Part shown: piece by piece, positions 12,808 to 49,808 of the stretch
Position numbering within the stretch: the stretch's first letter is position 1
Layout of the letters: each line of letters starts with the position of its first letter
Source of the DNA: an uncultured Gammaproteobacteria bacterium
GTDB lineage: Bacteria > Patescibacteriota > Microgenomatia > Levybacterales > UBA12049
Reading direction: 5' to 3'
NCBI GenBank assembly: GCA_964544105.1
Contig: CAZIZQ010000001.1
Location: forward strand, 1-62,758
Length of the DNA stretch: 62,758 nucleotides
Notes under the pieces: model-generated
Database searches by the model: none
What the model was told of the DNA's origin: nothing
What the model saw: the letters and a program-made list of their open reading frames with translations, nothing else
Position numbers and translations under genes: made by a program

Positions 12808-12814
12808 AGTATTA

Positions 12815-12938
12815 AGCTCAAAAATCAAAGCGCAAAGTTCAAAACAACTCGCCTCGCTGCGAAGCGGGCAACGCAAAACTAAAAAGTTTTAAGATTTGAG
12901 CTCTAGTTTTGAGTTTTGACATTTGAGTTTTGAGTTTG
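12815..12938. repeat. Heptamer-built palindromic element, copy E1 (carries a GC-rich insert)
   Basis: CAAA-type heptamer arm 12815-12847, GC-rich 22-mer 12848-12869, and complementary TTTGAG-type arm 12887-12938. A 34-nt exact match to 27630-27663 lies at 12904-12937. Confidence 0.85.
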
Positions 12939-25797: not shown

Positions 25798-25890
25798 GCA
25801 AACTCAAAGCTCAAATGTCAAAGTTCAAAACTATAACTTAAAACTTAAAACTTTTAGTTTTGACTTTTGAGTTTTGCGTTTTGAGATTTT
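25798..25890. repeat. Heptamer-built palindromic element, copy E2
   Basis: Fills the rpoC-rpsL spacer. Register: ctcaaag ctcaaat gtcaaag ttcaaaa ctataac ttaaaac ttaaaac / ttttag ttttgac ttttgag ttttgcg ttttgag. Confidence 0.85.
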
Positions 25891-25893
25891 ATT

Positions 25894-27551: not shown

Positions 27552-27665
27552 AAAGCTCAAAGTTCAAATCGCAAAGCTCAAAGTTACAACTAAAAGCTCA
27601 AAGCTTATAAGTTTTTTAGTTTTGAACTGTAGTTTTGAGTTTTGACATTTGAGTTTTGAGTTTTT
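27552..27665. repeat. Heptamer-built palindromic element, copy E3
   Basis: The CAAA-type arm 27552-27610 is complementary to the TTTGAG-type arm 27611-27665. It ends 3 nt before the fusA ATG. Confidence 0.88.
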
Positions 27666-38277: not shown

Positions 38278-38625
38278 ATGGAAGTAAAAGCAGAAAGTAA
38301 AAATGTTCGAATGAGTCCAAGAAAGATTAGTCTGATTGCTGATGCATTGCGTAATAAGACTGTCGCTCAAGCTTATGCGATGTTGGCAGTTGTCCGCCAG
38401 CGTGCGGGAGGGGTACTTGAAAAGACACTCAAAAGTGCTATTGCAAATGCAGTACACAATGCAAAATTAAAGGAAGAAACATTGGTAATTAAAACAATCG
38501 AAGTCACACAAGCACAGGCATTAAAGAGGTTTCACCCATCAACAAGAGGACGGGTTCATCCATATAAAAGACGAGGAAGCCATATCAGAATTGTATTAGA
38601 GGAGGCACATGGGACAAAAAGTTAA
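38278..38625 (+). CDS. rplV: 50S ribosomal protein L22
   Basis: 115 aa with L22 pattern (RMSPRKISLIADALR). Confidence 0.95.
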   Translation: MEVKAESKNVRMSPRKISLIADALRNKTVAQAYAMLAVVRQRAGGVLEKTLKSAIANAVHNAKLKEETLVIKTIEVTQAQALKRFHPSTRGRVHPYKRRGSHIRIVLEEAHGTKS

Positions 38626-39256
38626 TCCACATGCATTAAGAATTGGTCCGGTATATGACTGGGTAAGCCATTGGTTTGACCAGAAGCGATATAAAGATGT
38701 GTTGCTGGAGGATTACATAATTAGAAAGAAGCTTTTAGATAGGTTAAAACCAGCAGGTGTAGCCAGGGTAGAAATAGATCGATCCATCAATAGTGTGAAG
38801 ATTACGGCATTTGTGGCAAAGCCAGGTATGGTTATTGGTCGGGCAGGGACTGGACTTGAAGAATTAAAAAAGTTTTTAACAGTAACCATACGATCTTTTG
38901 CTAAAAGCAAAAAAACTGCGCCAAAGTTTGATATTCGTATCGAACCAGTAAAAGAGCCAAATCTTGATGCATTCTTAGTTGCTAATACCGTTGCCGATCA
39001 GCTGGCAAAAAGGCTTTCATATAAACGCGTGCTTTTGCAGACAGCAGAAAAAGTAATGGGGGCAGGCGCAAAGGGAGTAAGAATACTTTTGTCTGGAAGA
39101 ATCAATGGTGCAGAAATTAGCAGACGCGAGAAGGTGCAACGTGGCACAGTACCATTATCGTCAATTAGGGAGCATATCTATTTTGCTAGCGTCCCGTCGT
39201 TAACCAAAAAAGGATATATCGGAGTAAAAGTGTGGATCAACAAACCAGAAAAATAA
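38609..39256 (+). CDS. rpsC: 30S ribosomal protein S3
   Basis: MGQKVNPHALRIG KH-domain N-terminus; 215 aa. Confidence 0.96.
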   Translation: MGQKVNPHALRIGPVYDWVSHWFDQKRYKDVLLEDYIIRKKLLDRLKPAGVARVEIDRSINSVKITAFVAKPGMVIGRAGTGLEELKKFLTVTIRSFAKSKKTAPKFDIRIEPVKEPNLDAFLVANTVADQLAKRLSYKRVLLQTAEKVMGAGAKGVRILLSGRINGAEISRREKVQRGTVPLSSIREHIYFASVPSLTKKGYIGVKVWINKPEK

Positions 39257-39356
39257 CTCAAAACTCAAATGTCAAAACTCAAAATTACAACTCAAAACGT
39301 AAAACTTTTAAGCTTTAAGCTTTAGATTTGAGCTTTGCGTTTTGCACTTTGAGATT
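39255..39356. repeat. Heptamer-built palindromic element, copy E4 (inside the S10 operon)
   Basis: Starts within the rpsC stop codon. Positions 39255-39284 are the exact reverse complement of 27634-27663. The right arm runs into the rplP start region. Confidence 0.85.
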
Positions 39357-39767
39357 ATTACTATAGTACCAAAACGAGCAAAATATAGAAAAACTTTTAG
39401 AGGAAGAATGAGAGGCAATGCCCATGCCGGCACCGAAGTATCTTTTGGTGAATTTGGCCTAGAATCAACCGAGCGGGGCTGGGTATCGTCCCGACAAATA
39501 GAAGCAGCTCGACGGGCAATTACCCATTATACTGCGCGTGGAGGTCGTGTATGGATTCGTATTTTTCCAGACAAGCCAATTACCAAAAAAGCAGCAGAAA
39601 CCAGGATGGGAAGTGGTAAGGGCGATGTTTTTGAATATGTTGCGGTGATAAAACCAGGAAGAGTGCTTTTCGAAATGGCAGGAGTAACAAAAGATATTGC
39701 GCGTTCTGCGCTAAGACTGGCATCACATAAGTTATCGGTAAAGTCACGAATTGTGGAGAAAACATAA
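39342..39767 (+). CDS. rplP: 50S ribosomal protein L16 (start codon uncertain)
   Basis: [17 protein letters not shown]16 N-terminal block. There is no ATG or GTG upstream. Candidate starts are TTG 39342 (inside repeat E4) and ATT 39354 or 39357. Confidence 0.9.
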
Positions 39768-49687: not shown

Positions 49688-49801
49688 GCAAAACTCAAAG
49701 TTCAAATGTCAAAGCTCAAAACTACAGTTCAAAACTAATAATCTTTCAAGTTTTGAGATTTTAGTTGTAGATTTGCGATTTGCGTTTTGAGATTTGAGTT
49801 T
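49688..49801. repeat. Heptamer-built palindromic element, copy E5
   Basis: Fills the rpoA-rplQ spacer. Positions 49690-49738 match the reverse complement of 27616-27664 at 46 of 49 positions. Confidence 0.88.
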
Positions 49802-49808
49802 ATTTTTT

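Follow-up and report, generated by a model that had tools for sequence, protein, structure and literature searches.

A palindromic repeat separates rpsC from rplP and coincides with loss of the rplP start codon in a Patescibacteria genome assembly

Small palindromic mobile repeats, such as the Rickettsia palindromic elements (RPEs) and the Correia and ERIC sequences that resemble miniature inverted-repeat transposable elements (MITEs), are imperfect palindromes of ~100 nt with many dispersed copies. Their usual sites are operon junctions, with an occasional in-frame copy within a gene, and their insertion is lineage-specific (PMC3184786, PMC2229807). Here we describe a repeat of this appearance, E4, which lies between the genes for the ribosomal proteins S3 (rpsC) and L16 (rplP) and coincides with the loss of the start codon of rplP. 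The locus is part of a 62,758-nt stretch of DNA (the window), which makes up the whole of contig C1 in an 864-kb metagenome-assembled genome (MAG) of 44 contigs with a completeness of 92.75%. According to the source names of its database homologues, the L16 of the window groups with Candidatus Levybacteria of the Patescibacteria, or Candidate Phyla Radiation (CPR).

In the list of open reading frames (ORFs), rpsC encodes a protein of 215 aa at 38609-39256 on the + strand and ends with a TAA at 39254-39256. Its protein and DNA are identical in two Logan contigs, and the Pfam domains KH_2 and Ribosomal_S3_C are recorded for it. E4 is a heptamer-built palindrome of 104 nt at 39254-39357 (no strand assigned), as delimited by nhmmer, by the repeat families D1-D4 and I2-I9 and by folds; its pairing can be extended to 39252-39359 (AAUAA with UUAUU). 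It consists of ~7 CTCAAAR heptamers, a turn and ~7 YTTTGAG heptamers, which form the inverted-repeat pairs I2-I9. By direct reading, the left ('A') arm (39257-39305, + strand) is CTCAAAA CTCAAAT GTCAAAA CTCAAAA TTACAA CTCAAAA CGTAAAA C and the right ('B') arm (39313-39353, + strand) is ...CTTTAGA TTTGAG CTTTGCG TTTTGCA CTTTGAG.

The conserved rplP coding region, as defined by the ORF list and by homologues, extends on the + strand from the proline of PKRAKYRK... to the TAA at 39765-39767 (39369-39767). Its frame is open from 39312 and, read back to that position, contains no ATG or GTG upstream of PKRAKYRK. The 5' part of the frame reads GCT...TTG(39342) CAC TTT GAG ATT(39354) ATT(39357) ACT ATA(39363) GTA CCA(39369), and the in-frame start candidates are limited to TTG 39342, ATT 39354, ATT 39357 and ATA 39363. 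The TTG (39342-39344, + strand) is the sole canonical start in frame before the conserved N-terminus, the two ATT codons (39354-39359, + strand) are near-cognate, and the ATA (39363-39365, + strand) would give M-V-P-K-R. No Shine-Dalgarno (SD) core was found upstream of rplP, where the only SD-like trinucleotide is the GAG at 39351-39353 (+ strand), 9 nt 5' of the ATA, which a comparison of copy tails identifies as the terminal GAG of the element. An earlier note on this DNA had placed the rpsC stop, the element, the TTG, ATT and ATA codons and the L16 N-terminus at these positions and had reported that neither ATG or GTG nor an SD precedes L16. Direct reading reproduced all of these coordinates and both absences, the GAG aside. 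A read-through fusion of rpsC to L16 is ruled out, as the codon phases of the two genes differ (rpsC 2 mod 3, rplP 0 mod 3).

The earlier note had proposed a comparison of rpsC-rplP junctions in relatives, and in this comparison the rarity of the locus exceeds chance. The rplP genes of all 28 evaluable genomes from this family and order start with ATG-TTA-NNN-CCA, as do those of the Logan contigs L033-L036. The other listed database homologues have an M-L-x-P N-terminus (119/119) once P0098 is corrected; its apparent 'MPRR' start was miscalled, and the real junction (TAATG-TTA-ATG-CCA) is ordinary. Among ~150 homologues, the L16 gene of this genome is thus the only one without ATG. The closest relatives, Logan contigs with 91-95% amino-acid identity, have a direct rpsC-rplP junction, 'gggaaaTAAtATGTTAGTACCAAAACGAGC', without any element, and the nearest of them (95% amino-acid identity) read "TAA T ATG TTA GTA CCA" with a 1-nt spacer. 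The window aligns to 'gggaaaTAAtATGTTAGTACCAAAACGAGC' as 'gaaaaaTAA[element...GAGATTATTAC]TAT---AGTACCAAAACGAGC', and the purine-rich run before the rpsC stop is shortened in the window relative to the relatives. Since the junction of the closest relatives is free of the element, the E4 insertion is specific to this lineage. Judged from the junction alignment with L033, L034 and L035 and from the table of copy tails, the ATA at 39363 is the remnant of the old ATG-TTA after an in-frame deletion of 3 nt, AT[GTT]A.

The spacer between rpsC and rplP measures -1 to 7 nt in 19 of the 28 relatives, and in the other nine the junction holds an insert of 27-142 nt; all of them keep ATG-TTA. The inserts lie in the spacer 5' of the rplP match at L004, L009, L011, L017, L018, L020, L023, L028 and L030. 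Several are heptamer-type palindromes with different, genome-specific units (e.g. CTAATTR, GCTAAAA, CTTAGGT), and among the relatives inserts have repeatedly landed between rpsC and rplP.

An nhmmer search with a profile of the window copies found 28 family loci in the 864-kb genome. For E4 (39254-39357) the E-value was 2.5e-26 on the + strand, against 7.3e-19 on the - strand; the profile was built from four sequences including E4, which makes its own score partly circular, while matches on other contigs are independent. The first 31 nt of the left arm are identical to the copy at C5:8733, and the right arm has 1 mismatch in 25 to C2:45401 and is near-identical also to C15:14505. E4 is a typical family member and not a decayed copy. 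The copies in the window are at 12814-12938, 25799-25892, 27552-27665, 39254-39357 and 49689-49803. The two arms can be told apart, which gives the element an orientation, and copies occur in both orientations across the genome, the sense and antisense RNA folds of a copy differing by at most ~14 kcal/mol (G.U pairs versus A.C mismatches). By eye, the 'CTCAAATGTCAAAAC' arm comes first relative to the downstream gene in ~11-12 of the 16 other gene-adjacent copies.

E4 thus shares with the RPE- and MITE-type repeats the ~100-nt imperfect palindrome, the many dispersed copies (28 here), the siting of copies at operon junctions and now and then within a gene in its reading frame, and a lineage-specific insertion. 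Unlike those repeats, the E4 family has arms that are AT-rich arrays of 7-nt units and sits flush at start codons (GAG-N8-9-ATG), and E4 itself coincides with the loss of the start codon of its host gene. No consistent direct repeat indicative of a target-site duplication was seen at the flanks of E4 or of other copies, the AATAA/TTATT flank being inverted. No transposase is linked to the family, though no transposase search was made. Repetitive extragenic palindromes and bacterial interspersed mosaic elements (REP/BIME), which are GC-rich stem-loops of 20-40 nt associated with REP-associated tyrosine transposases (RAYT), were rejected because E4 is 104 nt long, AT-rich and heptamer-periodic; RAYT was not searched for. 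By analogy, E4 appears to behave like an RPE- or MITE-type small palindromic repeat.

A scan of the + strand between 38500 and 39900 revealed no promoter-like or terminator-like site, and a covariance search of Rfam gave no known structured RNA or ribosomal-protein leader, just hairpin noise of 18-20 bits where the gathering scores are 50-98. From these results rplP should be co-transcribed with rpsC. An intrinsic terminator, in which a run of T comes after a GC-rich stem, was ruled out on the same scan, the stem being followed by ATTATTACTAT, and an internal promoter TTGCAC-14 nt-TATAGT was dismissed because its spacer is too short and the scan was empty. Excision of the element at the RNA level is likewise ruled out, since no junction restores an in-frame AUG.

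We compared the tail of E4 with those of its sister copies. An ATG follows the last GAG by 5-22 nt (mode 8-9) in 16 of the 17 gene-adjacent copies, a usual tail being TTTGAGCTTAATACT-ATG. E4 ends in TTTGAGATTATTACT-ATA: 9 nt separate its last GAG from an ATA in the exact place of the ATG, so that the position fits the family and the codon does not. Six other copies carry a TTG in frame, 21 nt 5' of their ATG; an arm followed by a 9-nt tail automatically sets a TTG in frame at this distance. TTG 39342 is a generic by-product of the element arm, not an adaptation of E4. We found no convincing case of another gene that relies solely on an arm TTG.

Element copies without SD lead rpsL, fusA and rplQ, which argues that the element leader supports highly expressed genes. 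Genome-wide, an SD-like core is present at ~17% of 745 crude gene starts, although strong AAAGGAGGTGA sites occur as well; a gene without an SD is therefore nothing unusual here. Many genes with TATAAT, 5-7 nt and ATG look leaderless (e.g. G000 C2:31685, C6:874, C7:5028, C18:154, C19:17517). The MAG contains no 16S rRNA signature, which leaves the anti-SD unreadable, and among the 26 tRNAs that ARAGORN detected in the genome (none of them on C1) no initiator tRNA was recognisable; one elongator-like tRNA-CAU was listed, as was a tRNA-Ile(UAU) on C30. Unusual infC starts are known elsewhere. The infC gene (IF3) of this genome (G000 C28:5399-5662, L037) has no N-terminal ATG either, and its frame opens TAC AAG AAA TTG ATA CGA...; it probably starts at TTG or ATA, but the choice is ambiguous and allows no firm conclusion on whether the genome uses AUA.

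In predicted folds, the mRNA strand of E4 reaches -18.9 to -19.9 kcal/mol, with z = -0.96 against shuffles when flanks are included. Among the 18 full copies its sense hairpin, at -18.9 kcal/mol, is the weakest (-22.5 to -45.6 in the rest), and the opposite strand folds at -32.4 kcal/mol. The sense hairpin is weak because the arm order on the mRNA strand gives A.C mismatches instead of G.U pairs. TTG 39342 has a predicted unpaired probability of 0.05 and its surroundings one of 0.20; the values are 0.42-0.49 for the two ATT codons and ~0.49 around ATA 39363. The earlier note's expectation that the TTG is base-paired if the hairpin forms agrees with this fold. Its further suggestion that expression of L16 depends on unfolding of the element is plausible, but with a hairpin this weak the dependence would be modest.

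rplP shows the marks of a working gene. It is present once, a genome search having found no second copy, its frame is intact and its operon position is normal. Compared with L033, 50 codons differ synonymously and 7 non-synonymously, which points to purifying selection on the coding region. The 13 codons from CCA 39369 to the internal ATG contain 1 synonymous and 0 non-synonymous changes, arguing that this N-terminal block is still translated. The constraint argument is weak if the insertion is very recent.

Taken together, we lean towards the view that E4 is a genuine lineage-specific insertion and that rplP is alive and translated from an SD-less, element-derived leader in a manner coupled to rpsC. 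If the sequence is correct, a start of L16 at a codon other than ATG or GTG, on a leader made by the element, is unavoidable. The ancestral junction would have read '...AAA TAA T ATG TTA GTA CCA...', and E4 would have inserted into this tight stop-start junction. With or after the insertion, three bases would have gone from ATG-TTA, leaving ATA, and the purine-rich rpsC end that precedes rplP in most relatives would have been lost as well. An in-frame TTG already present could have made loss of the ATG survivable, which is a plausible evolutionary path. In the resulting transcript, shared with rpsC, initiation at rplP would have moved to the SD-less leader. A ribosome terminating at 39254-39256 would cover or unwind the first ~12 nt of the left arm and free the base of the right arm; ribosomes finishing rpsC, only 0-10 nt from the hairpin base, could thereby open the weak hairpin and render the region from TTG to ATA accessible. 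Initiation at rplP would then be coupled to translation of rpsC through RNA unfolding and possibly through re-initiation. Coupling through unfolding and coupling through scanning are both established (PMC12548453).

The start would most likely be the canonical TTG 39342 in the right arm and next the near-cognate ATA 39363. Provided that the sequence is real, we give the TTG the best chance of any codon, albeit one just short of even, and the ATA a somewhat smaller one; a start at ATT is improbable, and one at any other codon equally so. The earlier note had suggested that L16 expression depends on a non-canonical start, on unfolding of the element or on both. That neither ATG nor GTG is available holds, but TTG is a canonical bacterial start and the term fits only ATT and ATA. 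A TTG start would add six residues to the L16 N-terminus. An ATA start would leave the protein one residue short and would use an open stretch and the slot in which 16 sister leaders have their start. UUG initiates in vivo in E. coli at 10-100% of the AUG level and AUA at 1-2% (10.1101/063800), and in vitro AUA equals AUG within an optimised initiation region (PMC5499595). A-to-I editing of the AUA was considered and dismissed, its UAGU context differing from the relevant loop. TadA-type editing takes place in a UACG loop.

Several points speak against this reading. M-L-x-P is invariant in the 119 listed homologues, and both the extension from TTG and the shortening from ATA are without precedent among them. 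TTG 39342 is paired in the predicted fold and has no SD, and masking the footprint of a terminating ribosome in silico raised its unpaired probability only to 0.14. AUA initiates poorly in E. coli in vivo (10.1101/063800), and selection for AUG peaks in conserved genes with high expression (PMC5622118). Finally, no Logan, JGI or GTDB contig spans the right junction, and positions 39340-39370 rest on one assembly.

The proposed arrangement has counterparts among translationally coupled genes. In phage f1 genes VII-IX, in the MS2 coat-lysis pair and in E. coli rpmI-rplT, a start without an SD of its own likewise lies in or by a hairpin that begins at the upstream stop (PMC12548453). Unlike in those pairs, the distance from the rpsC stop to the rplP start would be 85-106 nt, far beyond the usual range of efficient re-initiation, and E4 is a repeat of recent insertion that did not evolve as a regulatory hairpin; here, we infer the coupling. 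Ribosome termination structures (RTSs) resemble E4 in directly following a stop codon inside an operon, but in the published description they are stable and insulate against re-initiation (PMC7518266), whereas the E4 sense fold is weak and rplP lacks a strong initiation site of its own. E4 is not a clear RTS. The AUU codons of infC, where the codon serves IF3 autoregulation, and of pcnB are conserved starts other than AUG, GUG and UUG. If ATA or ATT is used, rplP would resemble these genes as an essential gene of the translation apparatus that starts at a near-cognate AUN codon. Unlike rplP, whose relatives all have ATG, infC has an odd codon that is conserved across species and regulatory. 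A conserved non-canonical start of the infC type is ruled out by the ATG in 28/28 relatives and 119 listed homologues, and the rplP codon is therefore a recent accident and not a conserved device.

The alternative that fares best, although we regard it as unlikely, is a local error of consensus or assembly. The MAG would have lost a GTT, and the genome would really read ...TTACT ATG TTA GTA CCA..., that is TATGTTAGTACC and not TATAGTACC, with a normal start 9 nt after the element. Restoring GTT yields the exact sequence of the closest relatives together with the 'tact ATG' tail that is usual in the family, a hairpin-forming repeat at which assemblies break adjoins the site, and no other genome of the ~150 homologues lacks the ATG; odd findings are, moreover, enriched for errors. 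However, a clean deletion of 3 nt is unusual for a short-read assembly, the k-mers over 39350-39375 are unique, so that the repeat cannot cause a mis-join there, and a 135-aa L16 (...EKT) of this species is absent from a collection of 5.8 billion proteins. Two overlapping Logan contigs are also identical to the window over 1.1-1.3 kb. These two independent contigs are substrings of the window that end at 39283 and 39284, which makes the left junction exact in both and places it in two different sequencing runs. Their breaks are explained by the identity of the left arm with C5:8733. Exact-protein look-ups of L29, L14, S17 and the 141-aa TTG form of L16 led to no other contig, and a 26-mer of the rplP 5' end had no match in JGI metagenome or GTDB genome contigs, where records of the own genome may be masked. 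In our view the locus is most likely real; the mechanism is what we infer from it, with the bases of the right junction taken from one assembly.

A bolder variant of the preferred reading, start of L16 on the element-derived leader, holds that the repeat has been co-opted as the whole initiation region of L16, replacing both SD and AUG, with a relay that spans the hairpin from the rpsC stop to the UUG or AUA. The hairpin may juxtapose stop and start, a mini-ORF in the arm may be translated, or both, and UUG and AUA may be incompetent alone. We think this improbable; if true, the relay would provide a natural example of termination-reinitiation over a long range (~100 nt) with a structured insert in between.

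Slightly less probable still is that the MAG consensus carries a defective allele or pseudogene, functional L16 being supplied by other cells or by an unassembled second copy. The genome is 92.75% complete and in 44 contigs, the arms of E4 are near-identical to those of other copies, as expected of a recent event, and the coding constraint could predate the insertion. Yet the genome has a single rplP with an intact frame in its normal operon place, and the left junction in two sequencing runs shows that the insertion is not a singleton. uL16 is an essential protein of the 50S subunit, and its loss is not expected to be viable.

We give very little credit to a start at the internal ATG (39408-39410, + strand), the Met of FRGRMRG, which would yield a 119-aa L16 that lacks ~16 residues at its N-terminus. 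No other ATG occurs in the 5' part of the frame, an AGAGGA lies just before this one with its end 4 nt upstream, and the gene caller picked it for the database entry P0007. All close relatives, whose starts are normal, share this ATG and the purine run, which are a by-product of coding FRGRM, and the skipped segment is the basic block of the L16 N-terminus with the highest conservation, its motif being found in 115 of 119 homologues (two other non-matching homologues differ by K for R only). The zero non-synonymous changes in this segment likewise argue that its translation continues. The public gene call P0007 (119 aa, 39408-39767) drops 13 conserved N-terminal residues, and its start was probably misannotated for lack of the usual ATG. 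Marker-gene pipelines based on L16 would inherit this clipped sequence of 119 aa.

The prfB frameshift site combines CUU-stop with an SD-like stimulator ~3 nt upstream. Translation of E4 shows an 18-codon mini-ORF (39269-39325, + strand) that ends in CUU-UAG (39320-39325); it opens with an ATG 12 nt 3' of the rpsC stop in the rpsC frame. This ATG, within 'CAAATGTC', is conserved in the A arms of the family, and mini-ORF lengths vary among copies. The least probable of the alternatives is a relay in which ribosomes re-initiate at ATG 39269, translate the mini-ORF through the hairpin and then use TTG 39342, 16 nt after the TAG, or slip +1 at CUU-UAG into the open rplP frame: re-initiation is most efficient over short distances (PMC12548453), but the mini-ORFs of other copies vary and end in the loop with no sign of selection, UUAAGCUUUAAG upstream of CUU-UAG holds no SD-like element, which led us to reject a prfB-type +1 frameshift, a frameshifted L16 would have 33 residues added to an otherwise invariant N-terminus, and the idea is drawn from the sequence alone.

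What is unusual at this locus is the insertion of a repeat and the replacement of a start codon; start of L16 on the element-derived leader would be a matter of ordinary coupling and an alternative start, not of a new mechanism. If the sequence is correct, the locus is a natural experiment in which an essential, stoichiometric ribosomal protein has lost its invariant AUG and tight coupling, a loss attributable to a selfish repeat, while its gene persists. The locus would then show the reach of SD-less, non-AUG or structure-embedded initiation for a core CPR gene, and would show that repeats of the E4 type can donate start codons and leaders.

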